Counted from the first letter of the stretch, positions 2,195 through 30,569 are shown. The stretch: DNA of 64,000 nucleotides from a candidate division WOR-3 bacterium (GCA_037441285.1 JBBISL010000005.1:28869-92868); one strand, 5' to 3'. The notes: a model not told the origin generated them from the sequence alone. Numbers and translations: made by a program.

Positions 2195-2203
2195 CCACAG
2201 GGA

Positions 2204-4336: not shown

Positions 4337-4338
4337 TT

Positions 4339-7095: not shown

Positions 7096-7334
7096 TTTAC
7101 CTCCTTCTTGTAGGATATTTTAGCAAAAGCGTTTTATCTGTCAATAAAGTTGCCAACAGGTTCTGGTTTCAGGTTTAGAAAGGGCGTCTTGAAAAGAGGC
7201 AGGGCATTTTGTCGGGCGGCATGCGGCGCAATTTTAGGGATTAGAAAAACTTGACAAAAGCGGGAAATCTGGCAAAATAAATAAAGGAGGGAATCGGGGT
7301 TTTTATGGTATTAGAATTAAGAAAGGAGGTTAGG

Positions 7335-8711: not shown

Positions 8712-8737
8712 AATTCCGGCCGGAAACGGAGGCGAAT

Positions 8738-10552
8738 ATGAGGCGGCTTTTTTTAGCGGGCGCGTTTGGACTATCAATTTTGCTCGGCACCGTCGTGATG
8801 GCGCAGAGTTATCGGCTACCGGAATGGGTGATTGATGAAGGCGGGGTGGAGGCAAGAAGTAGCGGTTATATACTTAACGGCAGTTTTCATCAGACGACAA
8901 TCGGATATGCGACCGGCGGTAACTTTATCGCCTGGATTGGTTTCTGGCATCCCAGACCACAATGGGTCGGCGAACACGATGTTGCGGCGGTGCGGATTGT
9001 GGCACCGGTGGGCAGGGTTGATACGATGAACGATGTTACCCCGAAGGCGGAACTGGCGAACTACGGCACCGAGGCGGAAAATTTTACCGCGATATTTAAG
9101 ATTTACATCGCCGGGGGTGTGATTCCGGTCTATCAGAATTTTAAACTGGTTCATCTTGAGCCCGGTGAGTCGCGAATCGAACAGTTTGTTTCCACACGGT
9201 TGCATGGCCTTGGTCCCAACATCGCCCGCTGTTCGGTGGCACTGGCAAACGATGCCCATCGGGAAAACGACACCGTTTCGTCTGTATTTAAGGTTCTGGG
9301 CCGACCCGCATTACCCGAAGGTTGGTCTGAAGTGGAACAGATTCCGGCACCGCCGAGCGGGCGAGGTGTTAAAGATGGCGGATGGATTGCCGCGGATGAG
9401 GAAACGGGTGTGATGTATGTTTCAAAAGGGAACAAGGTGGCGGATTTTTATCTTTACGACCCGAACGCTTCTCCGGTATGGCGCGAACTTGACCCCTGGC
9501 CCAAGGGCAGTGAGGGCAAGAATCCCGGAAGGGGTTCGGTGGGTTATGTCGCGAGCGATGGTTGTGTTTATGCGACAAAAGGCAACAATACGCTTGGATT
9601 CTGGCGTTACAGTGCTTTGCTCGGCTGGGAGGCTTTGCCCAATGTGCCTTATGGTCCGAGCCATCGAAAGGTCAAAGATGGCTGTGATATGGTGTTTGTC
9701 GAAAGGGATGGACTTCCTTACATTTATCTCCTGAAAGGGACCCGTAACGAGTTTTATCGATACAACATTATCAGCGGTGTCTGGGAGGAGCTGGCACCGG
9801 CGCCCGGAACATCGAAATGGTACCGCGGTTCCTGGCTGGTTTACGACGGGGAAAATACGATTTACGCCCACAAGGCAAAGTATCATGAGTTTTATGCGTA
9901 TGATATCGCGGCGGGCGAGTGGCGGCAAACACCATTGGTGCCAATGCCAATCGCAAGCGAGCGGATGTTGACCCGGAAACGGGCAAAGGATGGCAGTTGC
10001 GGCACCTGGGCGTTTGGTTCAATCTTTGCCTTGAAAGGCGGCAACACCTGTGAGTTCTGGCGGTATATTCCGGATGGCGATTCCTGGGTGGAGATGGACA
10101 CAATCCCTTCGGTAGGTTCTTCTGGTTCTAAGAAGCGAGTGCGCAATGGTGGTGACATTGCGTTTTCCAGTGGGGAGGTTCTCTATGCGCTTAAAGGTAA
10201 CAAGACGCTGGAGTTGTGGCGGTTTGTACCCGGTGCAGAGATTGTCAATCCCGCACCACCGCAGCGGTCAGCCGTGATGGCGGAAGGAGTCAATTTATCG
10301 TCGGTGCCGGGTCTTCAGGTAATCAATTCGGTGGGGCGAGAGCAGGTCCAGGTGCGATACCAGCTGGGTGGCGCGGGGCAGGGTAGTTTGGAACTGATGG
10401 ACATTACCGGCCGGGTGATTGCGACGCAGAAAATTGTGGGTCAGGAAGGCAGTATCGTGCTGGGTGGGCACGGGATGAAGTCGGGAGTGTACTTTGTCCG
10501 GCTTCAGACCGAGACCCGCACCCTTGTACAGAAGGTGGTTTTCGCCCCTTAG
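8738..10552 (+). CDS. Kelch-like beta-propeller protein with T9SS C-terminal sorting domain
   Basis: Signal peptide present. Repeated GGWIAADEETGVMYVSKGNK / YATKGNNTLGFWRY / FALKGGNTCEFWRY blades. C-terminus GVYFVRLQTETRTLVQKVVFAP. It is paralogous to the C-terminal half of 30697-33891. Confidence 0.6.
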   Translation: MRRLFLAGAFGLSILLGTVVMAQSYRLPEWVIDEGGVEARSSGYILNGSFHQTTIGYATGGNFIAWIGFWHPRPQWVGEHDVAAVRIVAPVGRVDTMNDVTPKAELANYGTEAENFTAIFKIYIAGGVIPVYQNFKLVHLEPGESRIEQFVSTRLHGLGPNIARCSVALANDAHRENDTVSSVFKVLGRPALPEGWSEVEQIPAPPSGRGVKDGGWIAADEETGVMYVSKGNKVADFYLYDPNASPVWRELDPWPKGSEGKNPGRGSVGYVASDGCVYATKGNNTLGFWRYSALLGWEALPNVPYGPSHRKVKDGCDMVFVERDGLPYIYLLKGTRNEFYRYNIISGVWEELAPAPGTSKWYRGSWLVYDGENTIYAHKAKYHEFYAYDIAAGEWRQTPLVPMPIASERMLTRKRAKDGSCGTWAFGSIFALKGGNTCEFWRYIPDGDSWVEMDTIPSVGSSGSKKRVRNGGDIAFSSGEVLYALKGNKTLELWRFVPGAEIVNPAPPQRSAVMAEGVNLSSVPGLQVINSVGREQVQVRYQLGGAGQGSLELMDITGRVIATQKIVGQEGSIVLGGHGMKSGVYFVRLQTETRTLVQKVVFAP

Positions 10553-12210
10553 TCGAGAATCGCCTTCAGGTCTTCTTCGGGTGTTGCGATCGGCGTTAGA
10601 TTAAATTTGTCCACAAGTATCTGAACAATCCCGGGCGTGAGAAATGCGGGTAGCGACGGTCCGAGACGGATGTTTTTGATGCCGAGATAGAGCAGGGTCA
10701 AAAGCACCGCTACCGCCTTTTGTTCATACCAGGAAAGGATTAGCGAGAGCGGAAGTTCGTTTGGGTTGACTCCGAGCGACTTGCTTAAGGCGATGATAAA
10801 CTGGATTGCCGAGTAACTGTCGTTGCATTGGCCCACATCCCAGAGCCGGGGCAGACCTTCAATCGTCCCGAACTCCAGTTTGTTGAACCGGTACTTACCG
10901 CAGGCAAGGGTTAAGATAAGACATTCGTTCGGGACGAGCTGGGCGAACTGGGTGAAGTAGTTCCTGCCCGGTTTTGCACCGTCACAGCCACCAATCAGAA
11001 AGATGTGACGCAGGCGCTGCGATTGAATCAGTTCGGTTATTTCGTCCACTTTGCTTAACAGGGTGTTGCGGCCAAAGCCCACGGTAATGTAATGCTCGGC
11101 ACCCTCAGTGCCAAATCCGGGTTGGGCAAGTGCCGCTTCAATCACCGGGGAAAAGTCATCGCGGTGCACATGACGCACCCCGGGCCAGGCAACGAGTCCG
11201 GATGTAAAGATGCGGTCTTTGTAACTCTCCTGAGGCCGCTGGATACAGTTGGTGGTCATCAGAATCGCACCGGGGAAGAGCGGGAACTCCTTTTGCTGGT
11301 TCTGCCAGGCAGAGCCGTAGTTGGCCACGAGGTGTTTGTAGGCTTTAAGTTTGGGATAGCCATGAGCCGGCAGCATTTCCCCATGGGTGTAGATGTTGAT
11401 ATTTTTGTCTTTGGTCTGCTCAAGGAGGGCGGCGAGGTCACGCAGGTCATGACCGGAGACACAGATTGCTTTGCCCCGCACCGGGGTAATCCGAACCCGG
11501 GTTGGAACTGGCTCGCTATAGTTTAAGGTGTTTGCCAAATCAAGCAGTTCGGTTACGCTCAGATTGAGTGCGCCGACCGCTAAGGCGTTATTTAACAGTT
11601 CCTGGGTGTCAAACTGGTCCCGCGTCAGGTAGTCAAGTAGTTCGTGAAACCGGGCGTAGAGCCGGTCGTCTTCTTTGCCCAGAATCGCAGCATGGTCGGT
11701 ATAGGCGGCAGCGCCTTTAAGACCGAAGAGGATGAGGTCCATCAGGTCGGCTTGTTCGTCGCCAAAGCGCGCGTGCCGGCTGAGGATGCCGGCCTTTTTG
11801 CCCTGTGCGATGAGGCCATCAATATCAGGCGCCGGAGTCCAGCTGGCAGGTCCAGAAAGGGTTTCCGGTTGAACCCCTTTAGTTCGGCAGGCGTCAAGGT
11901 AAAGTTTTTGTGCCCGAGCCTTTAAATCAGCGGCACGGAACAGAAGCCCTTTCAATCTTTCCGGGTCAAAGTCCACATTGGTGATGGTGGAAAACAGCGC
12001 CTCAACCGTAAACAGGTTGATTTCGCAGTCGGTGGCACCCAAACGCCGGGCACGGTGCGCAAACTGGGCGATGCCTTCGGTCGCGTAGATTAACAGGTCC
12101 TGCAAGGTTGCGGTCGTCGGGTCTTTGCCACAGACTCCCTGAGTTGTGCAACCGGTACCGCCTTTGGTCTGTTCACATTGATAACAGAACATCTTTACTT
12201 CTTCATTCAT
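10549..12210 (-). CDS. hcp: Hybrid cluster protein (hydroxylamine reductase)
   Basis: N-terminus MFCYQCEQTKGGTGCTTQGVCGK is the canonical Hcp cysteine motif. Full length is 553 aa with the conserved C-terminal Cys/His/Glu ligands region. Confidence 0.9.
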   Translation of the reverse strand: MNEEVKMFCYQCEQTKGGTGCTTQGVCGKDPTTATLQDLLIYATEGIAQFAHRARRLGATDCEINLFTVEALFSTITNVDFDPERLKGLLFRAADLKARAQKLYLDACRTKGVQPETLSGPASWTPAPDIDGLIAQGKKAGILSRHARFGDEQADLMDLILFGLKGAAAYTDHAAILGKEDDRLYARFHELLDYLTRDQFDTQELLNNALAVGALNLSVTELLDLANTLNYSEPVPTRVRITPVRGKAICVSGHDLRDLAALLEQTKDKNINIYTHGEMLPAHGYPKLKAYKHLVANYGSAWQNQQKEFPLFPGAILMTTNCIQRPQESYKDRIFTSGLVAWPGVRHVHRDDFSPVIEAALAQPGFGTEGAEHYITVGFGRNTLLSKVDEITELIQSQRLRHIFLIGGCDGAKPGRNYFTQFAQLVPNECLILTLACGKYRFNKLEFGTIEGLPRLWDVGQCNDSYSAIQFIIALSKSLGVNPNELPLSLILSWYEQKAVAVLLTLLYLGIKNIRLGPSLPAFLTPGIVQILVDKFNLTPIATPEEDLKAILD

Positions 12211-13028
12211 TTCTCCTCCTTGATATTACCATCGATACCAAGGGTGATTTCCTTAAATGGGATGTTTTTCCCGCTGGTAGCAAGCGCGTGACGGGCAATT
12301 TGCACCAGGCCATAACAGCAGGGCACCTCCATATGTAAACAGGTTACCGAAAGGATGCTATTCTCCTGGAAGATGCTTGTCAACTTCTCTAAGTAGAACT
12401 GGGCATCGTCCAGTTTGGGACAGGCGATGAGCAGGACCTTACCGGCAAGGAATTCGGGATGAAATGCGGTGCTGGTAAAACCGGTGCAGTCAGCAGCGAG
12501 CAGGAGGTGGGCGTTGTTAAAGTATGGAGCATGGACTGGGACAAGGGTTAACTGAATGGGCCAGGTGGTGAGCTGTGATTCCGGGCGAGTGGTATCAGGT
12601 GCCGGTTTTTCTTTTGGTGTCAGACGGCGTACCTGAGTGCCCGGGCAACCACAGGCAAGCGCCGGTTTTTCGTCTGGTATCGGGATGTCGTGTTCTTTCA
12701 GGTAGGCGATTGCTTCCTCATAAAATTTCTGGGCACCGTGCTCTTTTAAGTGCTTAAGATGGGCGCGGATGGTATTGGCACCGGCGCGCACGATATTCCC
12801 CATCACCTTTCGTTCATCATAGGGTTCGGCAGGTCGTTCTTCAATGGTGAGCGCGCCCTCTGGACAGGTGCCAACACAGGCACCCAAACCATCACAAAAC
12901 AGGTCAGAAATCAGCCGTGCCTTGCCGTCAATTACCTGCAGCGCACCTTCCGGGCAGTTGGGGATACAAAAACCACAGCCCGTGCACTTTTCTTCATCAA
13001 TACGGATTATTTTTCTTGTCTTCTTCAT
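12207..13028 (-). CDS. 4Fe-4S dicluster ferredoxin-domain protein (Hcp-associated redox partner)
   Basis: Two CxxCxxCxxxCP motifs (CTGCGFCIPNCP, CDGLGACVGTCP). Its stop overlaps the hcp start by 4 nt (ATGA), indicating translational coupling. Confidence 0.7.
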   Translation of the reverse strand: MKKTRKIIRIDEEKCTGCGFCIPNCPEGALQVIDGKARLISDLFCDGLGACVGTCPEGALTIEERPAEPYDERKVMGNIVRAGANTIRAHLKHLKEHGAQKFYEEAIAYLKEHDIPIPDEKPALACGCPGTQVRRLTPKEKPAPDTTRPESQLTTWPIQLTLVPVHAPYFNNAHLLLAADCTGFTSTAFHPEFLAGKVLLIACPKLDDAQFYLEKLTSIFQENSILSVTCLHMEVPCCYGLVQIARHALATSGKNIPFKEITLGIDGNIKEEK

Positions 13029-13441
13029 TTTTCCTCCAGATTTAATTTAACTGCGGCTAAACTGGTCGTCTTCAAGTACCGGACCAGTTGGCGATTGGTT
13101 TTTAAAAGGAAATTTCCCACCGGGCAGCCACCGTGGCATATCGGGATGGCAAAAGGACAGTGGTTGACTTCGACTGTGCCAACGACCGCCTGATAGACCG
13201 CAAGCAGGCTTATTTCCTTTGCCGGTCGCGTCAGAAGATAACCGCCCATTGGTCCGGTTTTTCCCTTGACCAAACCGGCTTTTTCCAGTTGCACCAGTAC
13301 TTTTGCCAGATGGGCAGCAGAGACACCAAGGATTCGGGCAAGGCGGTTGATTGTCCAGCGTTCAGCGGGATGATGGGCAAGGATTAATGCGGCATGGAGC
13401 CCGAGGCGGGCTGCTTCCGGGGTGTTAACCAATTCTGCCAT
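13025..13441 (-). CDS. Rrf2-family transcriptional regulator (NsrR/IscR-like)
   Basis: N-terminal wHTH typical of Rrf2 (LGLHAALILAHHP...WTINRLARILGVSAAHLAKVLVQLEKAGLV). Cysteines present in the C-terminal half. It is the first gene of the Fd-hcp operon, with a 4-nt overlap to the next gene. Confidence 0.8.
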   Translation of the reverse strand: MAELVNTPEAARLGLHAALILAHHPAERWTINRLARILGVSAAHLAKVLVQLEKAGLVKGKTGPMGGYLLTRPAKEISLLAVYQAVVGTVEVNHCPFAIPICHGGCPVGNFLLKTNRQLVRYLKTTSLAAVKLNLEEK

Positions 13442-15552: not shown

Positions 15553-15687
15553 GGGGTATTTAGCTGAAAGTAACAGCAAAATTTAGAAGAAGATTGCTTA
15601 TAATTTAATGCCATGGGGGCGGTAATTGACTTTCTCGAGTTAATATCAATAATTAAACTGAAGGCAAATAACTTGAAAGGAGTGTTT

Positions 15688-16281
15688 ATGACAACCGCAG
15701 GGAATATCATATACCGCACCAGTGTTGGTGTGGTTTTTGTTGCATTGCTTGCCGGGTGCGTCGCTACCCCAGCGATGAGGAAGGCGATGCAGCCTTATTC
15801 GATTTCGGCACAGTTTGACCTTTCTAAGCCGTGGCGGATTGCAGTGTTGCCGGTTCAACTGACCGGTGATTCCGATAATGAGATGAGTACCGATTTGGTG
15901 GAACGGGCTCAGATGCAGTTGATGAAGGTTTTAAACTTTTCGGTTGTTGACCGGAGTGCGGTGGAGGCGGTTTTGAAGGAGCAGGAGTTTTCTTACTCCG
16001 GGTTAGTTGACCCCGAGACCGCCGCCCGTTTGGGAAAGTTGATGGGTGCTTCAGCGGTGCTGTTGATTAAGGTGGGACAGGTAAAGCACGACCCGTTTTT
16101 CTCCGACTCACCAAACCAAAGGGATGCACAGTTGAATGTACGCATCATCGGGGTTGAGACCGGTGAGGTTTTGTATTCGGCGCAGGGGCAGGGTTCCAGT
16201 TTTGAAGGACCGGAAGAAGCACTGGCGAGCGCGCTGGATGTTGCGCTACTGCCTTTGCTGGAAAAAGGAGGTGTTAAATGA
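15688..16281 (+). CDS. Lipoprotein with LpoB / TolB-N / CsgG-like fold
   Basis: RBS GAAAGGAG precedes the ATG at 15688. Lipobox LLAGC. Core RIAVLPVQLTGDSDNEMSTDLVERAQMQLMKVLNFSVVDRSAVEAVLKEQEFSYSGLVDPETAARLGKLMGASAVLLIKVGQV fits the LpoB/TolB-N pattern. Confidence 0.5.
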   Translation: MTTAGNIIYRTSVGVVFVALLAGCVATPAMRKAMQPYSISAQFDLSKPWRIAVLPVQLTGDSDNEMSTDLVERAQMQLMKVLNFSVVDRSAVEAVLKEQEFSYSGLVDPETAARLGKLMGASAVLLIKVGQVKHDPFFSDSPNQRDAQLNVRIIGVETGEVLYSAQGQGSSFEGPEEALASALDVALLPLLEKGGVK

Positions 16282-17261
16282 AAACGGTCGGTTTTTTGCT
16301 CTTGACGATTGTCCTTTTTGTCTCCTGTGTAAGTTCTGGTGTCGGTGTACGGAATGCAGGTACCGCCCAAATGCCAACCGAGGCGCCGGCAAGTGGACCA
16401 GTACAGATGCCCCCGATGCCGCGCGAGACAAGCGAGGTTGTGCCCCTGCCCGTGGAGGAGATTGTTTCTCCGGGTGAGGTGGTGGAGCCGGTGCCAGGTG
16501 GAGTTATTGATTGGGGTGCTAAGGTGGTGCGAGCGCGCGGTTCGGGCGTTGTTGACCCCGGAGACCCAAATCCGGCGCGTGCCCGGTTGATGGCAGAGCG
16601 CGCCGCGGTGGTTGTTGCCCAGCGCAACCTCCTCGAGATTATCAAAGGGGTGCGGGTTGATTCTGACACCAAGGTGGAGAACTTCGTTACGAAATTTGAT
16701 GTGATTTACACCCATCTTGAAGGGATAGTTAAAGGGGCGCGCCAGGTAGGGCCGGCGCGGTTCGATTCGGCGAGTGGTGTGGTTGAGGTGGAACTTGAGG
16801 TCAACCTTACCGGTCCCCAGAGTGTAAGCGATGCGCTGGAGCCAGCGATTTTGCAACCCGGAGGGGCGGTGCCGGAAGTTCAAGCATCAGCAAGCGTCCG
16901 GGAGTTTTTGCAGAAGTATTCGGCGCTGGTTTTTGACGCCGGGAACAGCGGCTTAAAGCCGGCGCTTTTCCCGAAGATTTACGACGAAGCGGGCAACCTG
17001 CTTCTTGATACAAAAGAACTGTATCAGTACACCGGAACAACGGGCCAGAAGGTGGTTCATTATATCGGGAAACTGGATGAGATTCTTTCCCGTCCCGAGT
17101 TTGCCAACCAGCCCTTAGTTTTGAAGATTAAACAGGTCCGGGGTAAGATGGGTGCGGATATTGTCCTGAGTAAAGAGGATGCGGATAAACTTAAGTGGCT
17201 TAAAGATGGTGCTCGTTTCCTGTTTGATGCCGGCCGGTTTCTCATAAAACTTCTTCTGTAA
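16278..17261 (+). CDS. LPP20/FlgP-family-like lipoprotein
   Basis: Lipobox LFVSC, followed by a Pro-rich linker. Segment ARARLMAERAAVVVAQRNLLEIIKGVRVDSDTKVEN matches the LPP20 core. It overlaps its neighbour by 4 nt. Confidence 0.5.
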   Translation: MKTVGFLLLTIVLFVSCVSSGVGVRNAGTAQMPTEAPASGPVQMPPMPRETSEVVPLPVEEIVSPGEVVEPVPGGVIDWGAKVVRARGSGVVDPGDPNPARARLMAERAAVVVAQRNLLEIIKGVRVDSDTKVENFVTKFDVIYTHLEGIVKGARQVGPARFDSASGVVEVELEVNLTGPQSVSDALEPAILQPGGAVPEVQASASVREFLQKYSALVFDAGNSGLKPALFPKIYDEAGNLLLDTKELYQYTGTTGQKVVHYIGKLDEILSRPEFANQPLVLKIKQVRGKMGADIVLSKEDADKLKWLKDGARFLFDAGRFLIKLLL

Positions 17262-17262
17262 G

Positions 17263-18477
17263 GTGGCGGAAATGGCGAATGGGAAAAGACTAATACTGTT
17301 TTTCGGGCTTTTTTGTTTGTCCTGTTACTACCCCGGATACAGTCCGACACCGGTTCAAACCCAGACGACTGAGGTTGTGCTGAGCGGTGGTGAAGGAACT
17401 GAAATTCTCGCCGAAGGCGTGGCAGCAATTACCGGCGATGTAGCGATGGCGCGGGACCAGGCATTGAAGGATGCCCTGCGTAAGGCGGTAGAGCAAGGGG
17501 TGGGTACTTTTATCAACTCCGAGACCCGGGTTGAGAACTTTCAGTTGCTCTCGGACCGGATATACTCCCAGGTGCAGGGTTATGTTTCTTCTTATCGGTT
17601 GATTAGTGAATCAAGGGAGGCTGGTCTTTATCGGGTCGTGGTGCGGGCAAAGGTGAAACTGGAGCGGATTGAGGACGACCTGAGGGCGATTGGGATTTTG
17701 ATTGCCGAACAGGGGAGGCCCAGGGTGATGGTGGTGGTGCGAAAGGTGGCAAATCCGGTTGCAGTTACAATCAGTGCAGAGACGATGGCACCGGAATTGG
17801 TGGAAACGATGTTGACCGCAGCGTTTCAGGAAAAAGGTTTTCCGGTAGTTGACCGGGCAACCGTGGAGAAAAATCTGGACCGGGAGCGGTTGCGCAAGAT
17901 TCTCGAAGGAGATACGCAAGCAGCAATGCTTTTAGGGACTGCCACGGGCGCGGAAATCGGGGTGGTGGGAACTTTGCAGGAGACGATGGCGCGAAAAAAG
18001 GTTCCTTATACTCAGGAGGAACGAGATTATCACCGCATTGAGTTAAGTGCGCGAGCAATTAACCTGAGCAGCGGTGAGGTCCTTGGTGCCGGCGTGGTAA
18101 ATGCCGAGGCGCCGTTCAGTGCCGAAGCGGCAAGGCGGGTGGCGGCAGACTCAATTAGCCGAATTTTGATTTCCCGCATCCTTTCCGGCTGGAAGCGGCG
18201 GGAGAATGTTACTTTGATTTACGCCCGTAATGCGGATTTCCAGAAAGTAGAGATTTTTAAGTCCGAGGTGCGAGCAAAAGTGCGAGGGGTGAGTGCGGTA
18301 CTTACCAGGGAGTTGAGCGGCAGTGATGCGGTGATTGAGATTGTGTCCGAGACGGCAACACCCGAGGTCATCGAGCAGATTAGTAGCCGGGAAATGGCGG
18401 TTCGGTTTCAGATTGAGGGCATTGCGGGGAACCGGATTGACATCAGGTTTTTGGAAGAAACCGAGCGGCAGAATTAG
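17263..18477 (+). CDS. Multidomain envelope protein: LPP20-like N-domain + LpoB/TolB-N-like middle domain + C-domain (FlgT-like size)
   Basis: Signal peptide present. AMARDQALKDALRKAVEQGVGTFINSETRVENF is LPP20-like. PRVMVVVRKV...ELVETMLTAAFQEKGFPVVDRATVEKNLDRERL...GAEIGVVGTL is LpoB/TolB-N-like. Confidence 0.5.
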   Translation: MAEMANGKRLILFFGLFCLSCYYPGYSPTPVQTQTTEVVLSGGEGTEILAEGVAAITGDVAMARDQALKDALRKAVEQGVGTFINSETRVENFQLLSDRIYSQVQGYVSSYRLISESREAGLYRVVVRAKVKLERIEDDLRAIGILIAEQGRPRVMVVVRKVANPVAVTISAETMAPELVETMLTAAFQEKGFPVVDRATVEKNLDRERLRKILEGDTQAAMLLGTATGAEIGVVGTLQETMARKKVPYTQEERDYHRIELSARAINLSSGEVLGAGVVNAEAPFSAEAARRVAADSISRILISRILSGWKRRENVTLIYARNADFQKVEIFKSEVRAKVRGVSAVLTRELSGSDAVIEIVSETATPEVIEQISSREMAVRFQIEGIAGNRIDIRFLEETERQN

Positions 18478-18582
18478 CAGGTATCAACGGTAATTAATCT
18501 GCTTTTTTGAAATCGGCAGCGGGCGCTTTACTTTGACAGGGTGCAATTGAAAGGTAAAATTCCGTTAAGAAAGGAGATGAAG

Positions 18583-19128
18583 ATGCGGATAAAAACAGGT
18601 ATTTTCGCAGTTATAATACTTTGTTTTGGGTTGAGTATCGCCAGTGAGACTGATACACTTAAACCGTCTGCGGTATTTATTCATCCTGACGCCCGGGGTA
18701 AACTGCCGATAATTGGGAATGTGGCGGTGGCACTCAGCGGGGTTGACGAGCAGAGCACCCGATTGCTGGAAGATGCGCTGGCGCTACTTTTGCTTGCTGA
18801 GAGCGTCAAGGTGGTTTATCCTTCGGACAAGGATGTCGGTAAAATGCGCGCCCAACTGCCCGAACCGATTGAATGGGCGAAGAAACAGGGTGTGAATTGC
18901 CTTTTGACCGGAACCGTGGTGGCACGATGCACCCATTGTGCTCACGGTAAGTCGCGCTGCTCAAATGAAGGGATAAGGGCGGTTTCGTTTACCCTGGTGG
19001 ATGTGCCTGAGGACAAGATGCTCCTCTGGGCGCTTTATGAACCAACAAATACCGTGACCCCGACCGATTTTGCCCGGTCGTTTATCGGTTTAATAAAAGA
19101 AAACCTTAAAGAGGAGGAGAAAAAATGA
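18583..19128 (+). CDS. LpoB/TolB-N-like secreted protein
   Basis: Own promoter TTGACA-16-TAAAAT (18533-18560). AAGGAG lies 7 nt before the ATG at 18583. Signal peptide present. GNVAVALSGVDEQSTRLLEDALALLLLAESVKVV...QGVNCLLTGTVV fits the LpoB pattern. Confidence 0.5.
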   Translation: MRIKTGIFAVIILCFGLSIASETDTLKPSAVFIHPDARGKLPIIGNVAVALSGVDEQSTRLLEDALALLLLAESVKVVYPSDKDVGKMRAQLPEPIEWAKKQGVNCLLTGTVVARCTHCAHGKSRCSNEGIRAVSFTLVDVPEDKMLLWALYEPTNTVTPTDFARSFIGLIKENLKEEEKK

Positions 19129-19697
19129 AACGGCTGGCTTTTCTGGCGCCGGTGCTTTTATTCTTTGCCTGCGCCACATCTCATTATGTCCGTCCCGATG
19201 AGGTAACCGAATGGGACTACACTTATAGCGATACCGATATGAAGCTTCTTGCCGAAAAGATGGTGCAGTCACTGGCAGAGTTAAACCTGCCAGCACGGTC
19301 CGACACCGGCAAACCGGTACTGGCTTTTCTTGCCATTGGCAACCGGACCTCCCAGCACATCGACACCGAAGGGATTGCGGAGAAGATTATGGTGGCGCTG
19401 GTAAAACTGGGGAAGTTCCGGATTGTGGACCGAGAACTGTTGAAACAGCAGGCAAAGGAGATTGCGCTCCAGGAGACGCAACGGATTGATGTTGAGGGGG
19501 CGGTAAAACTGGGAAACCTCATCGGTGCCGACTACTTCCTTACCGGGGATGTGATGAGCATTGAGAAGACCAAGGGCGCGACAACGCTCGCCTATTACAA
19601 ACTGACGATGCGGCTGGTTAATGTCCGGACTTCAGAAATCGTCTGGGCGGATGAACAGGAACTGAAGAAGAAGAGCACCAAGTCCTGGTACGAGTAA
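19125..19697 (+). CDS. Penicillin-binding-protein activator LpoB homolog (lipoprotein)
   Basis: PVLAFLAIGNRTSQHIDTEGIAEKIMVALVKLGKFRIVDRELL...GAVKLGNLIGADYFLTGDV...YKLTMRLVNVRTSEIVW aligns motif-for-motif with the E. coli LpoB globular domain (VDSVNNRT...GKF.LVS...GAHYVLYSS...LQMQLMLVQTGEIIW). Confidence 0.6.
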   Translation: MKRLAFLAPVLLFFACATSHYVRPDEVTEWDYTYSDTDMKLLAEKMVQSLAELNLPARSDTGKPVLAFLAIGNRTSQHIDTEGIAEKIMVALVKLGKFRIVDRELLKQQAKEIALQETQRIDVEGAVKLGNLIGADYFLTGDVMSIEKTKGATTLAYYKLTMRLVNVRTSEIVWADEQELKKKSTKSWYE

Positions 19698-19704
19698 ACG
19701 GCTA

Positions 19705-20853
19705 ATGAGCCGAGCGGGCGTCCTTTTACTCCTGGGCGCGCTGTTTTTTATAACCTGCGTGCCGGTTGCGCCCACCGTACCATCAGCACCCACGCCCCGC
19801 TACTTCTCAAACCTCTCCTATGAAAATGCGATTGAACGGTATCGAAAAGTTGTTGAAGAGAAGTTTCAAAAGCAGGACCTTTCCTACATCCTTTCCCTTT
19901 TGAGTTACGGGATTACCAACTTTTACGGCGGAAAGCAGGCGGATGCCAAACGGGCGTTTCTCGCGGCGTACAAAGTTGATGCCGGTGAGCGTCCTGAGGC
20001 GGCAAAGCTTTATGACTGGTTGGTGGTGGATTCGAGAACAGTTTACAAATTGAAGAAGCGCGAGCGGGAACTGGTCCACTTATATCTCGGGCTGTGTTAT
20101 CTTTTTGAAAATAACCTTGAGGAGGCGCTGGTGGAGTTTAAAAAACTGCGCCAGTTTGACCAGGATGCTTCCACCCTCCCGATTGTCAACTTTTATACCG
20201 GACTGTTGTACGAGAAGATGGAGAAGTTTGATGATGCGCTGATTGAGTTCCGACAACTCGAAACACTCGGTATCAAAGGCTTGGTACGAAATGTTGAACT
20301 GATGCGGGACAGCGGTTATATCCTTGCCGGCGATTCAATTGAACTGGTGGTCCAGGTGGAGCATCAAACGGTTGGTTCAATCGGAAGAACAGAGGTATAT
20401 GCGGACAGTTCCCTTTTAGTGACGGTTCTACCTGAGGTGAGCGACAGTTTTGCGGTACGGTTAAGCCGAGCCGAGGCGAATCGTAAAGCAGCACAGGAGG
20501 CGGGTGCCAAAGCAGCGCGTATCGGGCTGCGGGTTTTATCGGCGGTGCTTCTGGAAAAGGCGTTGCCCGGTATCGGGGAAGAACTGGCGGACAATATCGC
20601 TGATATCACATTGGGCAAGGAGGAAGAGAATCGGGACATCCGTGCCTGGGGTTATGCACCATTAAACTTCGCCTTTGCCCGGATGCGGATTCCCAAGTCA
20701 ACCAGCAAGGCGCGGCTGGTGTTTTACAACCGGGCAGGCAGTATGCTGGGCTACTGTGACTATCCGCTCCGGGGCGAAAATAGCCGGGCGGCTTATGCGG
20801 CGGGGATGTTTTTCATCGTCGCCGGTCTGGCTGAGGAGTTTTATGTGTATTAA
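19705..20853 (+). CDS. Lipoprotein with helical/TPR-like repeats
   Basis: Lipobox FFITC. Helical repeat character (LYLGLCYLFENNLEEALVEFKKL..., YTGLLYEKMEKFDDALIEFRQL). No specific family recognised. Confidence 0.4.
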   Translation: MSRAGVLLLLGALFFITCVPVAPTVPSAPTPRYFSNLSYENAIERYRKVVEEKFQKQDLSYILSLLSYGITNFYGGKQADAKRAFLAAYKVDAGERPEAAKLYDWLVVDSRTVYKLKKRERELVHLYLGLCYLFENNLEEALVEFKKLRQFDQDASTLPIVNFYTGLLYEKMEKFDDALIEFRQLETLGIKGLVRNVELMRDSGYILAGDSIELVVQVEHQTVGSIGRTEVYADSSLLVTVLPEVSDSFAVRLSRAEANRKAAQEAGAKAARIGLRVLSAVLLEKALPGIGEELADNIADITLGKEEENRDIRAWGYAPLNFAFARMRIPKSTSKARLVFYNRAGSMLGYCDYPLRGENSRAAYAAGMFFIVAGLAEEFYVY

Positions 20854-20866
20854 AAAGGAGGTTAGA

Positions 20867-21280
20867 ATGAAGAGATTCTGGGCAGCAGCAGGCGGTCTGA
20901 TGCTAATCCTTGCCTGTTCAACCACGATTAACTCCCTCTGGATTAACCGGGAGACCGAAAGCCGGCGCTGGGTAATCAACAACCCGGTTCTGGCATCAGA
21001 CATCCGGGTGCTGGATGTAAAAGAAGAGGAGAGTGGCGGCGCGTTGATTGTCAATGTCCTGTTGAAGAATGGCTGGCATATGCCAATTGGTGGTAAGGTC
21101 AAGATGCTTTTTTACGACCAGAATGGCGTGCAACTTGATGACCCCTGGGGCTGGCATCAAATCAACCTCGAATCCAATCAGGAGCAGTGGGTGAAGTTCG
21201 TGGCACCAAAGCCCGCGGACCAGATTTCCAAGATGAAACTGATGATTCGGGGAATCAACCGCTACTCCTCTTCAGGCTAA
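20867..21280 (+). CDS. Small (138 aa) lipoprotein, possibly YcfL/DUF1425-like
   Basis: AAGGAGG lies 6 nt before the ATG at 20867. Lipobox MLILAC. The size and the position next to LpoB-like genes recall the E. coli ycfL-lpoB pairing. This is the weakest assignment in the block. Confidence 0.4.
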   Translation: MKRFWAAAGGLMLILACSTTINSLWINRETESRRWVINNPVLASDIRVLDVKEEESGGALIVNVLLKNGWHMPIGGKVKMLFYDQNGVQLDDPWGWHQINLESNQEQWVKFVAPKPADQISKMKLMIRGINRYSSSG

Positions 21281-21363: not shown

Positions 21364-22365
21364 TTGATGCTCTTATTTATTGCGCTTATCAGCGGTATTA
21401 TTGAGTTCCACGGCCAGGCAATTGGGCAAATCGGCATCAGTGATTCGTTAAGCCATTGCTCCGTAAATATGGAGGGGGAATACCGACCCAGAGTTGAGTA
21501 TGAATCTGTAACACCAACACGCAGACTTGACTTTGTGGCATCGGTGCGGGCGGCCATCGGCAGCGTAATTCATTCCAAGAACACCAGTTGCCGTGCGGAG
21601 ATAGACCTCTATCGGCTGTTTTTAAGTTATGGCAGTGAGCGTTATGAGGTACGCCTTGGTCTGCAGCAGATTAACTTCGGCTCGGCGATGATTTTACGAC
21701 CCTTGCGCTGGTTTGACCGAATTGACCCGCGCGACCCGCTTCAGACTACGGCGGGTGTTTACGGTGTGCTTTACCGGTGCTATTCGGGCAACGACAATGC
21801 CTGGTTCTGGGGGCTTATTGGTAATTCAAAACCCAAAGGGCTGGAGACAACCCCAACCCCGAAATGGTTTCCTGAGGCGGGTGCCCGGCTGGAAAAGGCT
21901 TTGTCGGGCGGTGAGATGGCAGGCAGTTTCCATCATCGCTGGACGGTTGTTGAGGGTGATACGGTACTGGAAGACAAGTTTGGTCTTGATGGTCGCTGGG
22001 ACATAGGTCCTGGTGTCTGGTTTGAAGGGACGCTGGTGCATACGGGTAAGCGGTGGCAAGGGCAAATAATGGGGGGTGTGGACCATACCTTTGGAATCGG
22101 CAACGGGTTGACCGTCCTTCTGGAACATATGATAACCAGTAATCATACAAACGGGCAAAATCTCTCAGCGCTGTCTTTAACCTATCCACTCGGGCTCAAC
22201 GACAACCTGAGTCAGTTGACATTCTTTGACTGGCAGGAGCACAAGCCCTATATTTATCTGGCTTGGCAGCATACGCTGGATAACTGGCAGTTCCTTATCG
22301 CCGGTTATTTCAATGCGGCGGGAAAGACGAGCGGGATAGTCAGTCGGGTATTTTTTAACCATTGA
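21364..22365 (+). CDS. Hypothetical outer-membrane beta-barrel-like protein upstream of the ABC/LolA-like module
   Basis: Aromatic-rich alternating pattern with a C-terminal aromatic residue. No family recognised. Confidence 0.3.
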   Translation: MMLLFIALISGIIEFHGQAIGQIGISDSLSHCSVNMEGEYRPRVEYESVTPTRRLDFVASVRAAIGSVIHSKNTSCRAEIDLYRLFLSYGSERYEVRLGLQQINFGSAMILRPLRWFDRIDPRDPLQTTAGVYGVLYRCYSGNDNAWFWGLIGNSKPKGLETTPTPKWFPEAGARLEKALSGGEMAGSFHHRWTVVEGDTVLEDKFGLDGRWDIGPGVWFEGTLVHTGKRWQGQIMGGVDHTFGIGNGLTVLLEHMITSNHTNGQNLSALSLTYPLGLNDNLSQLTFFDWQEHKPYIYLAWQHTLDNWQFLIAGYFNAAGKTSGIVSRVFFNH

Positions 22366-22371
22366 CAGGAG

Positions 22372-23079
22372 TTGAAGATGAATGACCGCCAGGTTATTAT
22401 CGAGACGATTAATCTAATAAAGCGTTATCCGATGGGACGGCAGGAACTGGTGGCACTCAAAGGGGTAAGTTTGAAGTTTTACCGCGGGGAGTTCAGTGGT
22501 GTTATCGGTCCTTCAGGTTCGGGCAAGACCACCCTGCTTAATATCATTGGAACCCTGGATGCGCCCAGTGCCGGTTCGGTCCTGGTGCTGAATGAGCGGG
22601 GGGAATCGCTTTCCCCGCAGCGGGCAGCGGAACTGCGCAGCCGGCATATTGGCTTTATCTTTCAGACCTTTAATCTTCTGCCGGTTTATACCGTTTACGA
22701 AAATGTTGAGTTCCCGCTTTTGCTCTTAAAAATACCGGCAAAAGAGCGAAGCAAAAAGGTGATGGCGGCGCTGGAATGGGTTGGGCTGGCAGACCGCGCA
22801 AACTCAAAACCTTCCCAGCTGTCGGGCGGTGAATGTCAAAGGGTGGCGATTGCCCGGGCGGTGGTAAAAGAGCCAGCGCTCATCCTTGCCGATGAGCCAA
22901 CCGCCAACCTTGATGCCGAGAACTCATATCATATTCTCACAACAATGGTAAAACTCAACCGAGAACTGGGTACGACATTTATCTTTTCCACCCACGACGA
23001 AAAGGTAATTAAGTTTTTGCGGCGTCGCATTAAACTGGTTGATGGTGCGGTGGTGGCAGATGAGGAGGTAAAAGGGTGA
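22372..23079 (+). CDS. ABC transporter ATP-binding protein (LolD/MacB/FtsE type)
   Basis: Walker A GPSGSGKTT, signature LSGGECQRVAIARA and Walker B ILADEPT. Size and order match LolD-like proteins. Confidence 0.85.
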   Translation: MKMNDRQVIIETINLIKRYPMGRQELVALKGVSLKFYRGEFSGVIGPSGSGKTTLLNIIGTLDAPSAGSVLVLNERGESLSPQRAAELRSRHIGFIFQTFNLLPVYTVYENVEFPLLLLKIPAKERSKKVMAALEWVGLADRANSKPSQLSGGECQRVAIARAVVKEPALILADEPTANLDAENSYHILTTMVKLNRELGTTFIFSTHDEKVIKFLRRRIKLVDGAVVADEEVKG

Positions 23080-24245
23080 GTGCGATTAAACTGGCGTTGC
23101 GCAACCTGCGCGGAGCAGGGATTAGAACCTGGCTCAATGGTTTTGCCCTGTCCCTGGCGTTTGTTGCGATTATCTTTGGTCAGGGGCTATTAGCAGGGGT
23201 AAACCGTCAGGCAGAAAGGTCATCAATAGATTTTGAGTTCGGGGGCGGACAGTTTTGGTGTGAAGGTTTTGACCCCTATGACCCGTTGACATTGGAGCAG
23301 TCACACCGGGTGCTACCAGATACGCTTGCGCAACTGGTAGAATCCGGTCAGGCGGTAGCGATTCTGGTTGTTCCCGGGACGGTTTTTGTTCAGGGAAGGA
23401 TGGTACCGGTACTGCTCAAGGGGATTTCAACGCCGCAGACCGTTTTGAAGATTCCGACACAAGTACTGATTGACTCAACCGGTGATTTACCGGTTTTGTT
23501 AGGGGCGCAAATGGCAAAGAAGTTGAATGTCAAGGTGGATGATTACCCGACACTGCAGTGGCGGGACAAAGAGGGCGCATTTGACGCCCGGGAGGTTCGG
23601 GTCGCAGGAATAATGCAGACAAGTGTCGGGACAATTGACCAGGGTCAGGTGTGGCTGCCCTTAAACCAGCTTGAGAATTTGACCGGGTTGGAAAGGCAGG
23701 CAACAGTCGTGGTTCTGAAACCCGGTGTGAAAGCGCCGCCCGTTGTTGAAGGCTGGGAGTTTCGCACTGCCGAATTTCTTCTTTCTGATTTGCGGCAGAT
23801 GATAAAGACAAAGACCGTGGGTCAGTCGATTATGTTTGTCGTGCTATTTCTTCTGGCACTCTTAGCGATATTTGACACCCAGGTGTTTTCTATTTTCCGC
23901 CGGCGCCGGGAGATTGGCACGCTCATCGCGCTGGGAATGACGCGCGGTGCGGTGATTGCGATGTTCACCTTTGAGGGTGCGATGTACGGGGTGCTGGCAG
24001 CGCTGTTGGGTGCGATTTACGGTACGCCGCTGTTCCTTTATCTAAGTGCCTATGGGCTGGCAATGCCGGGTGGAAATCAGTGGGGGTTTGCGCTTGAAGA
24101 GCGAATGTATCCGGCATGGACTGCAGGGTTGATTGTCGGCACAACGATACTGGTTCTGATTACCGCAACCGTTGTGTCGTATCTGCCAACCCGGCGCATC
24201 TTGAAACTGAAGCCAACCGACGCTCTCCGGGGAAAATGGGTATGA
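23076..24245 (+). CDS. FtsX/MacB-LolC-type ABC permease
   Basis: N-terminal TM, a large periplasmic domain and three C-terminal TMs. 4-nt overlap with the ATPase gene. Confidence 0.7.
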   Translation: MSAIKLALRNLRGAGIRTWLNGFALSLAFVAIIFGQGLLAGVNRQAERSSIDFEFGGGQFWCEGFDPYDPLTLEQSHRVLPDTLAQLVESGQAVAILVVPGTVFVQGRMVPVLLKGISTPQTVLKIPTQVLIDSTGDLPVLLGAQMAKKLNVKVDDYPTLQWRDKEGAFDAREVRVAGIMQTSVGTIDQGQVWLPLNQLENLTGLERQATVVVLKPGVKAPPVVEGWEFRTAEFLLSDLRQMIKTKTVGQSIMFVVLFLLALLAIFDTQVFSIFRRRREIGTLIALGMTRGAVIAMFTFEGAMYGVLAALLGAIYGTPLFLYLSAYGLAMPGGNQWGFALEERMYPAWTAGLIVGTTILVLITATVVSYLPTRRILKLKPTDALRGKWV

Positions 24246-25513
24246 CCGGTTTCATTATCAAAGGGCTGGTGCGGGATCGCAGTCGCAGCCTTTTCCCATT
24301 TCTGACGGTTGCGATTGGTGTTGCGCTGGTGGTATTTCTGGACGCCTATTTGCGCGGGACAGAGGACAGCGTTTTTGATACCACCGCCCGACTGGTGACG
24401 GGTCATTTGATGGTAACGACCCGGGCACAGGCGCAGGAAGGTGAAGCCGGTTCTCTGGAGACGGCGCTGTTCGGAGTCAAGGGTTTAAAGGCGGAGTTGA
24501 AAAGCAGGCATCCGGATATCATCTGGACCGAGCGCATCCGGTTCAGCGGCATACTTGATGTGCCCGATTCGCTGGGCGTGACCCGGGCACAGGTACCAAT
24601 TACCGGTTTGGCGGTTGACCTGACACCGGGCTCGGTTGAGCATCAACTTCTCCAGTTGGAGAAGGCGCTGGTGCGGGGCAGGATTCCGGAAGAGAGCCGC
24701 GAGATTTTGCTCAGCGAGGAGTTGTGTCAGCGGCTGGGAATTTCGCCGGGTGCGCGCCTTACCCTGATATCAATGACCGCAGAAGGCGGTATGGCAATTG
24801 CCGACTTCACGCTTGCGGGCACGGTGCGGTTTGGTGTTACCGCTTTAGACCGCAGTATGGTTATTGGCAAATTAGAAGGGGTGCAGGAGGCGCTCGGGCT
24901 GGAAGACGGTGCGAGTGAAATTGTGGGATTTTTTACGGACGGGGTTTATGACGACCGGCGCGCGGGGCAAATCGCCCGGGAGTACAACGCCGGTTTAAGC
25001 AGGATTGAAGACGAGTTTGCACCGATGATGCGGTCTTTACGGGAGGCAAGCGATTTGGGTTCACTTATTGACATCGTTTCGGGCGCTACCGGCTTAATAA
25101 CCCTGATATTCATTGTCGCGATGGCGGTGGTACTCTGGAATGCGGGATTGATGGGTTCACTCCGGCGTTACGGTGAGATTGGCATCCGGTTGGCGCTCGG
25201 TGAGTCCAAACCGGCGCTTTACCTTTCGCTTCTTGCCGAGGCGTTTTTTATCGGGCTGGTCGGTTCGGTTGCGGGCACGCTGGTCGGACTGGTGCCGGCG
25301 TATTATCTACAGAAGGTCGGGCTCAACATCGGCGGGATGATGAAAAATACCACGGTAGTAATAAGTGAGGTGCTGCGCGCCCGGATTGCACCGGCAAGTT
25401 TCTTTGTCGGATTCCTGCCCGGGTTGATGGCGACCTTTCTGGGCAGGGCGATTTCCGGGCTGGGAATTTTCCGGCGTTCAACCGCCCGGCTGGCAAAGGA
25501 GTTTTCCGAATGA
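24236..25513 (+). CDS. Second FtsX/MacB-LolE-type ABC permease
   Basis: Same topology as 23076-24245. The ATG at 24236 overlaps the preceding stop. Confidence 0.7.
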   Translation: MGMTGFIIKGLVRDRSRSLFPFLTVAIGVALVVFLDAYLRGTEDSVFDTTARLVTGHLMVTTRAQAQEGEAGSLETALFGVKGLKAELKSRHPDIIWTERIRFSGILDVPDSLGVTRAQVPITGLAVDLTPGSVEHQLLQLEKALVRGRIPEESREILLSEELCQRLGISPGARLTLISMTAEGGMAIADFTLAGTVRFGVTALDRSMVIGKLEGVQEALGLEDGASEIVGFFTDGVYDDRRAGQIAREYNAGLSRIEDEFAPMMRSLREASDLGSLIDIVSGATGLITLIFIVAMAVVLWNAGLMGSLRRYGEIGIRLALGESKPALYLSLLAEAFFIGLVGSVAGTLVGLVPAYYLQKVGLNIGGMMKNTTVVISEVLRARIAPASFFVGFLPGLMATFLGRAISGLGIFRRSTARLAKEFSE

Positions 25514-26229
25514 GCACAATTCTGGCTCTGCTACTGTTTTTTACCGGAGAACTGCCCAATGGTGATACGCTCCTTGTCCGAATTGATGAAAACATCTTTG
25601 TTAGGAGCCGGATGGTTGTTGCCAGTATGCGCATCACCGGCAGAAGGGGCATGCGGACCGTGCGCATCCGTTCTTATAGCCGGGGTGACAGCGCCTTTGT
25701 TGAGTATCTGGCACCGGAACGGGAAAGGGGCACCAAGATGCTGAAGTTAGGGCGTGACCTCTGGATTTACACACCAGAATCGGACCGGACAATCCGTATC
25801 TCCGGTCATATGTTGCGCCAGTCGGTAGCGGGTTCGGATTTGTCTTATGAAGATATGATGGAGGAGCCGCGTTTGAGTCAGATTTACAGCGCGGTTACAA
25901 CGGGCAGCGATTCAATCGATTCCAGACCGGTCTGGGTCTTAGAACTCAACGCCCGGAAACCGGATGTTGCCTATCCAAAACGAAGAATCTGGGTGGACCG
26001 CGAAAGGTTGATTGTGCTCAAAGAGGAACGGTTTTCCAAGAGTGGTAAGCCGTTAAAAAGAGCCGAGGTGCTTGAAACAAAATGGATTGACAGCCGCTGG
26101 CTCGCAACCCGGGTGGTTTTCCGCGACCTGTTGAAAACCGGAGCCGGCACCGAATTTGTCATTGAAGAGATGCATCAGGACATTTCAATTCCGCCCGCGC
26201 TTTTCACTAAGGCGTCATTGCGGCGGTAG
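25510..26229 (+). CDS. LolA-like outer-membrane lipoprotein-sorting protein
   Basis: Signal peptide present. KMLKLGRDLWIYTPESDRTIRISGHMLRQSVAGSDLSYEDM resembles the LolA-like family core. It overlaps the permease gene by 4 nt. Confidence 0.5.
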   Translation: MSTILALLLFFTGELPNGDTLLVRIDENIFVRSRMVVASMRITGRRGMRTVRIRSYSRGDSAFVEYLAPERERGTKMLKLGRDLWIYTPESDRTIRISGHMLRQSVAGSDLSYEDMMEEPRLSQIYSAVTTGSDSIDSRPVWVLELNARKPDVAYPKRRIWVDRERLIVLKEERFSKSGKPLKRAEVLETKWIDSRWLATRVVFRDLLKTGAGTEFVIEEMHQDISIPPALFTKASLRR

Positions 26230-30549: not shown

Positions 30550-30569
30550 ACCCGTTCCGGATTTTAATC

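Follow-up and report, generated by a model that had tools for sequence, protein, structure and literature searches.

An H-ring-like lipoprotein gene trio beside a separate LpoB/YcfL-type gene quartet in a candidate division WOR-3 bacterium

A block of seven consecutive plus-strand genes at positions 15688 to 21280 of a 64,000-nucleotide stretch of DNA from a candidate division WOR-3 bacterium (GCA_037441285.1, JBBISL010000005.1, 28869 to 92868) very probably represents two independent gene cassettes. The whole stretch is referred to here as the window, and positions are counted from its first letter. Cassette A, the trio, comprises genes g1 to g3 (15688-18477), and cassette B, the quartet, comprises g4 to g7 (18583-21280). 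The trio is best filed as an H-ring-like lipoprotein set without a flagellum, standing beside a cassette of LpoB, YcfL, and TPR proteins. The full proposal, in which there are two cassettes and cassette A makes an outer-membrane-anchored periplasmic ring or lattice akin to the Vibrio H-ring without a flagellum, is evenly poised in our judgment. The parts of the block belong to known superfamilies, namely SHS2/LPP20-FlgP-FlgT_N, TolB-N/CsgG/LpoB/PelC, DUF1425, and TPR. Defining features of FlgO, LipL46, the CsgG channel, and PelC (its anchor and its operon) are absent from the block, as is the linker of LpoB; for FlgT, family matches to the M and C domains were lacking. Literature searches turned up no study of the g2 or g3 families, DUF6175, or clusters of the DUF799/DUF4810/GNA1162/CsgG/LPP20 or YcfL/LpoB/DUF1425 kind.

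Gene order divides the block into two cassettes

The genes of the block and two promoter-like sites are as follows.

15626-15653, plus strand: promoter-like site TTGACT-16-AATAAT, 35 nt 5' of g1; 10 of 12 consensus positions, a consensus match only
15688-16281, plus strand: g1, 197 aa; lipobox LLAGC; CsgG/LpoB-type alpha/beta core without channel hairpins; first gene of the trio
16278-17261, plus strand: g2, 327 aa; lipoprotein; linker, SHS2 domain (FlgP/LPP20 type), C-terminal domain, and hydrophobic C-terminal helix
17263-18477, plus strand: g3, 404 aa; lipoprotein; SHS2 FlgT_N, TolB-N/CsgG-core-like middle, and C-terminal domains
18533-18560, plus strand: promoter-like site TTGACA-16-TAAAAT in the g3/g4 gap; 11 of 12 consensus positions; top match of a 9-kb scan
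18583-19128, plus strand: g4, 181 aa; exported, with a signal-peptidase-I type signal; PelC/TolB-N-type fold; first gene of the second cassette
19125-19697, plus strand: g5, 190 aa; LpoB-family lipoprotein with a short tether
19705-20853, plus strand: g6, 382 aa; probable lipoprotein; TPR-like N-terminal half and conserved C-terminal half ending FYVY
20870-21280, plus strand: g7, 136 aa; YcfL/DUF1425-family lipoprotein; lipobox ILAC

The close packing described in an earlier reading of the sequence alone (the sequence-only reading) is confirmed by the open reading frame (ORF) coordinates. There are 4-nt overlaps at g1/g2, as that reading had noted, and at g4/g5, and the intergenic gaps are 1 nt at g2/g3, 7 nt at g5/g6, and 16 nt at g6/g7. 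The sole sizeable gap is the 105 nt between g3 and g4 (18478-18582), and the site that had been proposed as an internal promoter is present within it. A GAAAGGAG ribosome-binding site lies 5' of the g1 ATG at 15688. All seven products begin with a signal peptide, and six of them (g1, g2, g3, g5, g6, and g7) carry a lipobox cysteine, in agreement with the sequence-only description of a run of lipoproteins and signal-peptide proteins. The lipidation cysteines of the trio, C24 in g1, C17 in g2, and C21 in g3, are invariant or nearly so in the family alignments. The g4 protein, like every g4 homolog examined, has no lipobox cysteine and is read as a soluble exported protein.

Gene neighborhoods were compared in 78 species-representative loci carrying the g2 family, with neighbors assigned by profiles built from the window genes. 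The trio loci sampled came from WOR-3, Aegiribacteria, Sabulitectum, and Fermentibacteraceae/Hyd24-12. The nearest relatives carry the name candidate division WOR-3. Proteins 100% identical to g2 and g4 occur at NCBI on a 113-kb contig; an exact look-up of g5 gave no match. The trio is kept in 57 of the 78 species loci, in WOR-3 and Fermentibacterota, with g1 adjoining g2; of these, 44 have g1-g2-g3 only, 6 have all seven genes, and 7 are variants. The gene content of the 78 loci was as follows.

g1-g2-g3 only: 44 loci
g1-g7: 6 loci
g1-g4: 1 locus
two g1 copies: 2 loci
broken trio variants: 3 loci
cut by contig ends: 4 loci
g2 alone: 18 loci

The order of the trio, with its translational coupling, is strict across two phyla at 45 to 90% identity. 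The quartet, for its part, was found without the trio upstream in at least nine metagenome loci through a scan with g6 (L092, L094, L098 to L102, and L104 among them); the upstream sequence compared was the full 8 kb in L092, L094, and L099 and less on shorter contigs. One locus (L008) has the trio followed by g4 only. The breakpoint in synteny is the same 105-nt g3/g4 gap that holds the top sigma-70-like site. An unrelated beta-rich lipoprotein of about 260 aa comes next after the trio, or after a lone g2, in about 20 other WOR-3 loci. Examples are found at 11392-12183 of L003 and 9257-10045 of L006; these have no Pfam match, and they occupy the place of cassette B in another WOR-3 clade. A divergent WOR-3 form of the trio, with two tandem g1-like genes, a g2 of 260 aa, and a g3 of about 345 aa, occurs at 8876-11807 of L066 and 8901-11791 of L067.

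The existence of the trio alone and the quartet alone, with the breakpoint at the gap and its promoter-like site, indicates two cassettes and not one seven-gene system, as the block had been taken to be. The gene structure, the synteny, and the independence of the cassettes in the loci compared are direct observations. The two sets are joined only in one WOR-3 subclade and are probably transcribed separately, to judge from the spacing and the candidate promoter. The seven-gene order does recur in relatives, in the 6 GTDB species loci and in 8 metagenome contigs that differ in their flanks, and elsewhere the trio or the quartet occurs separately. Conservation across dozens of genomes shows that the block is not a chance aggregation of genes.

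Domain composition of the cassette A proteins

The g1 protein matches the Pfam families CsgG (5e-12, profile positions 45-153 of 210) and LpoB (1.5e-7), and its Pfam matches are limited to CsgG, LpoB, and GNA1162-like. Its score against LpoB PF13036 is 31.8 bits (cutoff, 22.3), and against the NCBIfam model TIGR02722 it is 32.7 bits, well under the cutoff of 110.55. The g1 and g5 families match each other at 96.8% in hhalign. The curli channel CsgG uses two transmembrane hairpins, TM1 and TM2, to build a 36-strand barrel; the transmembrane positions used here are reportedly those of Goyal et al. 2014. In alignments, the loop of g1 equivalent to TM1 has 14 residues versus about 27 in Escherichia coli CsgG and full-length CsgG relatives, and g1 ends ahead of the TM2 region when aligned with E. 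coli CsgG and distant CsgG relatives. The lack of both hairpin regions rules out a CsgG-type channel for g1.

In the g2 protein, a linker leads to an SHS2 domain (residues 76-176, approximately) and a C-terminal domain (205-300, approximately), and the C-terminal helix is hydrophobic and conserved. By itself it has no match in Pfam, LPP20 (PF02169) included, and 757 g2 homologs are likewise without a Pfam domain; the g2 ortholog in L110, a contig from another lineage, scores 30.7 bits against PF02169. A profile of 32 family members, however, matches Campylobacter jejuni FlgP (PDB 9hmf_C) at 1.9e-9, which bears out the LPP20/FlgP-like core claimed from sequence. That alignment covers FlgP residues 83-162, including the beta-hairpin, with one 1-residue and one 2-residue gap. 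The match of the same profile to Vibrio FlgP (8z5n) is not significant (E value of 0.32), and the C-terminal domain weakly matches domain D2 of Treponema pallidum Tp0624 (E value of 0.022), a marginal match to a fold then without analogs in a protein that has an OmpA-like domain as well. With the AlphaFold model of g2 as a Foldseek query, a FlgP chain was the sole significant match, followed by Tip-alpha.

The g3 protein has three domains: an SHS2 domain of the FlgT_N type at about residues 50-131, a TolB-N/CsgG-core-like domain at about 147-274, and a C-terminal domain at about 300-404. The first matches Pfam FlgT_N at 1.9e-11 (44.8 bits; cutoff, 28.8) and the g2 family at 97% in hhalign. Residues 147-274 match the g1 family with an hhalign probability of 95 to 97%, and through this match the middle domain is taken to share a fold class with FlgT_M. 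The description of g3 as LPP20-like plus LpoB-like holds for its N and middle domains; family matches to FlgT_M or FlgT_C were lacking. The g3 profile matches C. jejuni FlgP 9hmf_C at 4.3e-7, with two short insertions before the hairpin. By these alignments, both g2 and g3 carry an SHS2 domain with a beta-hairpin insert after the helix. Against the NCBIfam LipL46 model (NF033164), g3 scores 3.4e-18 and 65.5 bits, short of the equivalog cutoff of 400. Precomputed FlgO (PF17680) matches are present on some g3 homologs. Profile comparison revealed no counterpart elsewhere in the block for the C-terminal domains of g2, g3, and g6. These domain homologies were observed directly in the searches.

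Relation of cassette A to flagellar rings

The closest described system is the Vibrio cholerae H-ring, in which 26 copies of FlgT, with N, M, and C domains, are ringed by 58 FlgP and 58 FlgO subunits; FlgP and FlgO are lipid anchored to the outer membrane and contact each other sheet to sheet (bioRxiv 10.64898/2025.12.02.691832). FlgP, an SHS2 lipoprotein, resembles the N domain of g2; the SHS2 N, middle, and C arrangement of FlgT resembles that of g3; and FlgO, like g1, is a small lipoprotein of the alpha/beta kind, although g1 lacks a FlgO family match. The differences are that the lineage of the trio appears to have no flagellum, g3 lacks FlgT_M and FlgT_C matches, g2 carries an extra C-terminal domain of about 120 residues, and the trio forms one tight operon. 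Moreover, g3 belongs to the lipoproteins, and the H-ring study describes no lipid anchor for FlgT (bioRxiv 10.64898/2025.12.02.691832).

What holds the FlgP rings of C. jejuni together is a continuous beta-sheet built of a hairpin that follows the SHS2 helix as an insert, and ring formation across the FlgP family is said to track this insert (PMC12222027). C. jejuni FlgP (PDB 9HMF) is the top solved-structure match of both g2 and g3, and the alignments run through the ring-forming hairpin. FlgP is, in contrast, a single 171-aa domain that polymerizes around the flagellar motor, whereas g2 and g3 are multidomain and probably nonflagellar.

Genomes of Hyd24-12 encode no flagellar proteins (PMC5030696), and the trio is present in Hyd24-12 loci (L059 and relatives). 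Retention of the trio in a lineage without flagellar proteins indicates that cassette A is, with good probability, nonflagellar. In addition, the scan of 30 ORFs flanking the block gave no match to a flagellar, penicillin-binding protein (PBP), or curli family, and the sequence-only reading was correct on this point.

In the model that we propose, g1, g2, and g3 would be located at the outer membrane, on its periplasmic side, and the SHS2 domains of g2 and g3 would pack edge to edge, giving rings or arcs beneath it. The alpha/beta-core parts, g1 and the middle domain of g3, would dock on the SHS2 layer as a second layer, and the three lipid anchors of g1, g2, and g3 would tie the assembly to the membrane. 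The product would be a nonflagellar ring, disk, or lattice, serving to stiffen the outer membrane or to act as a scaffold for some envelope partner. Cassette B, which has a promoter-like site of its own, is in this model a set of the LpoB/YcfL type with a TPR lipoprotein and a soluble PelC-fold protein added. A ring or scaffold made by g1 to g3 is reasonable by analogy with FlgO, FlgP, and FlgT; that cassette A forms a ring or lattice we hold as a tentative proposal, somewhat more doubtful than probable.

Several points weigh against the model. The outer-membrane location, oligomerization, ring shape, and function of cassette A are inferred from homology only. SHS2/LPP20 proteins, Lpp20 for example, are not all ring formers, and LpoB and TolB are monomeric, so a common fold need not mean rings. 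The AlphaFold model of g2, made with 32 sequences, is of low confidence (predicted local distance difference test score, pLDDT, of 51), with the hairpin region unmodeled. In Pfam searches, g3 has no match to FlgT_M or FlgT_C at an E value of 1 or less and g1 has none to FlgO (PF17680), and the g1 family profile matched no solved structure. The absence of flagella is drawn from the Hyd24-12 genomes and the window ORFs scanned. Cassettes A and B are adjacent in at least 14 loci, leaving room for a functional link. Finally, the promoter-like sites were called with a sigma-70 consensus, and WOR-3 promoters may differ.

Wider relatives of cassette A

The family of g3 is large. A search of 1.84 billion representatives with the g3-family profile returned 8,331 clusters at an E value of 0.001 or less and 556 at 1e-30 or less; many matches are full length, at about 390 aa. 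Named distant relatives include members from Nitrospinota and Zixibacteria, one of which is labeled DUF6175, and FlgT_N is kept in them. On three contigs from other lineages (L108 to L110), a g3-like gene, a two-domain g2 ortholog, a CsgG-family gene, and a FecR-domain gene occur together. One of these contigs is labeled Nitrospinota, and one carries a protein from a cluster with a Zixibacteria-named member. The g2 orthologs there match the g2 profile at E values of 1e-49 to 1e-60. A gene for a TPR-SLH lipoprotein is present in L108 and L110; in its place, L109 has a CsgG and TPR fusion. L109 and L110 have a full-length CsgG gene (profile positions 5-207 of 210), and one full-length CsgG-family match beside such g2-like and g3-like genes spans positions 7-207 with an E value of 2.5e-40; a weak FlgT_C match was seen in L110 only. 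The g2-like and g3-like proteins of the three contigs have ordinary signal peptides and no lipobox. Compared with these distant clusters, the CsgG-like partner of the trio, g1, is cut down in WOR-3, as judged from the alignments.

The clusters around distant g3 relatives lie at 524-7958 of L108, 6121-11294 of L109, 4998-9856 of L110, and 2471-7200 of L112, and among them CsgG or LpoB domains are fused to NHL, laminin-G, or FGE-sulfatase domains. Together they look like a variable, unstudied family of envelope gene clusters. In Deltaproteobacteria, a g2-like gene lies between a GNA1162-like/beta-helix gene and lptE or 5' of a transglutaminase gene. At 7146-11604 of L075, and also in L076, L079, and L080, the order is leuS, a 930-aa GNA1162-like plus beta-helix gene, the g2-like gene, and lptE, so that a g2 relative is inserted into a conserved leuS-lptE neighborhood.

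Flagellar rings and disks built of FlgO, FlgP, and FlgT are regarded as late additions to the motor, and the trio has the same building blocks in phyla without a flagellum. If the ring or lattice is real, it would be a new envelope structure in the poorly known bacteria of the FCB group, and cassette A would be a plausible source of flagellar disks. A broader idea is that cassette A and its wider family represent a free-standing outer-membrane lipoprotein ring or lattice in aflagellate FCB-group bacteria, the kind of system that was co-opted into flagellar disks such as the Vibrio H-ring and the Campylobacter FlgP disk. We consider this broader idea speculative and, as it stands, unlikely.

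The cassette B proteins

The first protein of the quartet, g4, is narrowly distributed: 14 homologs were found among 5.8 billion proteins, all in a small WOR-3 clade, with no sequence-level relatives beyond it. Its PelC-type fold was revealed by structure search alone. Cysteines C116, C119, and C126 are conserved and lie in a low-confidence insert (residues 115-130) of the PelC-like fold, and they might provide a disulfide or metal site. PelC is the ring lipoprotein of Pel polysaccharide export, and g4 differs from it in lacking a lipid anchor and pel genes nearby, in having the Cys-rich insert, and in an identity of about 15%. An LpoB/TolB-N-type fold had been assigned to g1, g4, and g5 together. 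The assignment is upheld by Pfam for g1 and g5 and by structure search for g4; profile-profile comparison of g4 with g1 or g5 gave a probability of about 1% and hence no link.

The g5 protein is a clear member of the LpoB family, matching Pfam LpoB (PF13036) at 2.6e-34 (118.7 bits; cutoff, 22.3), the NCBIfam model TIGR02722 at 119 bits (cutoff, 110.55), and the LpoB structure 4q6l at 1.5e-4. Over a 120-residue alignment with E. coli LpoB (g5 65-183 against LpoB 102-213), identity is 23%, and at that level the earlier statement that the two align motif for motif was generous, even though the family is right. With the lipidated cysteine at position 16 and the Pfam domain beginning at position 38, the tether is about 21 residues long; by the alignment offset, the globular domain begins about 37 residues earlier than that of E. 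coli LpoB. The periplasm-spanning linker of E. coli LpoB is reportedly about 54 to 58 residues long (Egan et al. 2014). The short tether makes LpoB-style spanning of the periplasm unlikely for g5, which is expected from its sequence to act near the outer membrane and not to reach an inner-membrane PBP.

Fold assignments for g1 to g7 as a set largely held, the weakest being that of g6, which scores 25.5 bits against TPR_2, under the cutoff of 27. Further TPR matches are weak, and its profile gives marginal TPR matches in the PDB (E value of about 0.09). The g6 protein is nevertheless well conserved, with a mean column identity of 74% across seven orthologs, and its gene is always between g5 and g7 in the loci compared. 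The small lipoprotein g7, likened earlier to YcfL by size, belongs to Pfam DUF1425 (PF07233; 3.3e-11, 43.4 bits versus a cutoff of 28.3, profile positions 3-95 of 96). Its single profile match in the PDB is 3o0l_A, with an E value of 0.084, and BLASTP gave no alignment with E. coli YcfL.

In E. coli K-12, ycfL is directly upstream of lpoB, and this pairing of a DUF1425 lipoprotein gene with an LpoB-family gene parallels g7 and g5. The adjacency in E. coli suggests that the g5/g7 pairing is an old association and not a new one. The two arrangements differ in gene order, in the TPR gene g6 between g5 and g7, in the much shorter tether of g5, in the lack of a thiK/nagZ context around the block, and in the absence of BLASTP similarity between g7 and YcfL. 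A second parallel is the C. jejuni operon of cj0089 (TPR lipoprotein, 453 aa), cj0090 (small lipoprotein, 122 aa), and cj0091 (COG3417 type, 207 aa) (PMC3100323). Cj0091 is an outer-membrane protein that aids adherence and is 33.5% identical to HP1457 (PMC3100323). By description only, this operon has the composition of g6, g7, and g5; its order is TPR, small, LpoB-like, in contrast to LpoB-like, TPR, small in the block, and it has no PelC-fold partner. HP1457 is presumably a member of the lpp20 operon of Helicobacter pylori. The view that modules of these kinds appear singly in described systems goes too far, in view of ycfL-lpoB, cj0089-cj0091, and the three contigs of other lineages. Well beyond the Gammaproteobacteria, LpoB-family and YcfL-family lipoproteins are found in company with a TPR lipoprotein. 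The LpoB-like protein there has a tether that would not suffice for the E. coli mechanism, and labeling it automatically as a "penicillin-binding protein activator" becomes questionable in such genomes.

Other explanations for the block

Cassette B, and perhaps g1 too, might encode activators of peptidoglycan synthases, as in the pairing of E. coli LpoB with PBP1b. We regard this as doubtful. The score of g5 above the NCBIfam LpoB equivalog cutoff, its match to solved LpoB structures, and its position two genes from the YcfL homolog g7, reminiscent of the E. coli ycfL-lpoB pair, all favor activation of a PBP, but the tether is much shorter than the E. coli linker, there is no PBP gene among the window ORFs scanned, and Cj0091, the analog in C. 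jejuni, was characterized as an outer-membrane adhesin and not as a PBP activator.

Cassette A might instead be an accessory part of a CsgG-type pathway for secretion or assembly of a surface polymer. The occurrence of distant g2-like and g3-like genes next to full-length CsgG-family and FecR-domain genes gives this some appeal. It is improbable all the same, given that g1 is without both CsgG hairpin regions, that the trio stands alone with varied flanks in WOR-3 and Fermentibacterota, and that csgA, csgB, csgE, and csgF partners and substrate genes were all absent from the window ORFs scanned.

There is similarly little likelihood that the seven genes give rise to one outer-membrane complex. 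A single complex would fit the common strand, the tight spacing, and the g1-g7 order retained in the 6 species loci and 8 contigs with different flanks; it conflicts with the 44 loci that have the trio alone, with the quartets that lack it, with the unrelated lipoprotein gene in fourth position in other WOR-3 genomes, and with the strong promoter-like site in the gap at the boundary.

The products could also act individually as outer-membrane or surface lipoproteins of the antigen or adhesin type, such as LipL46, Lpp20, and Cj0091, with no assembly among them. The N and middle domains of g3 do resemble Leptospira LipL46, a lipoprotein of about 413 aa that matches g3 residues 44-245 (with a score far under the family cutoff), and Cj0091 is an adhesin. 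However, the strict, translationally coupled order of the trio over two phyla argues for a stoichiometric complex, and the hosts are free-living environmental bacteria; individual action is a poor prospect.

Lastly, it is extremely improbable that the trio belongs to a flagellar H-ring or basal disk and is merely encoded apart from the flagellar genes: its domain content does parallel FlgO, FlgP, and FlgT, and the distant cluster in L110 is about 3 kb from genes for a methyl-accepting chemotaxis protein and CheW, but Hyd24-12/Fermentibacterota keep the trio and encode no flagellar proteins, and the window ORFs scanned include no flagellar genes.

Genomic surroundings

Downstream of the block, positions 21364-26229 encode a 333-aa protein with no Pfam match, an ABC ATPase, two FtsX/MacB-type permeases, and a LolA_like protein. 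Only about 11 of 26 loci have this set after cassette B, and on that count it was rejected as part of the feature; it is treated as a loose neighborhood of cassette B. The 333-aa gene is present in some of these loci and absent from the close relative L001. A metallophosphoesterase gene upstream was likewise rejected, being kept in close relatives only.

Genes for a Peptidase_S26 signal peptidase and a ThiI/NFACT-R_2 protein are found at 26959-27783 (minus strand) and 27892-28875 (plus strand). A Peptidase_S26 gene lies within a few kilobases of the trio or a lone g2 in many WOR-3 loci, and in Deltaproteobacteria (L072, L077, L078, and L083) g2-like genes have a ThiI/NFACT-R_2 gene one or two genes away, so that the neighborhood recurs across phyla.

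Genes related to type IX secretion (the T9SS) occupy positions 1127-10552 and 29662-33891; they encode a PorV-like protein, a clostripain (C11), a C25 gingipain-like protease with Kelch repeats, and several Por_Secre_tail proteins. The PorV-like protein and the T9SS sorting domains support the earlier description of the source as a T9SS organism. Positions 10549-13441 (minus strand) encode a hybrid-cluster protein (Prismane), a multi-ferredoxin-domain protein, and an Rrf2 regulator, a unit that is conserved upstream in the close relative L001 too. The GC skew is positive throughout the window (1-64000), the genes are mostly on the plus strand, and parA and parB are found at 38978-40635, which suggests that the window is on the leading strand and not far from the origin.

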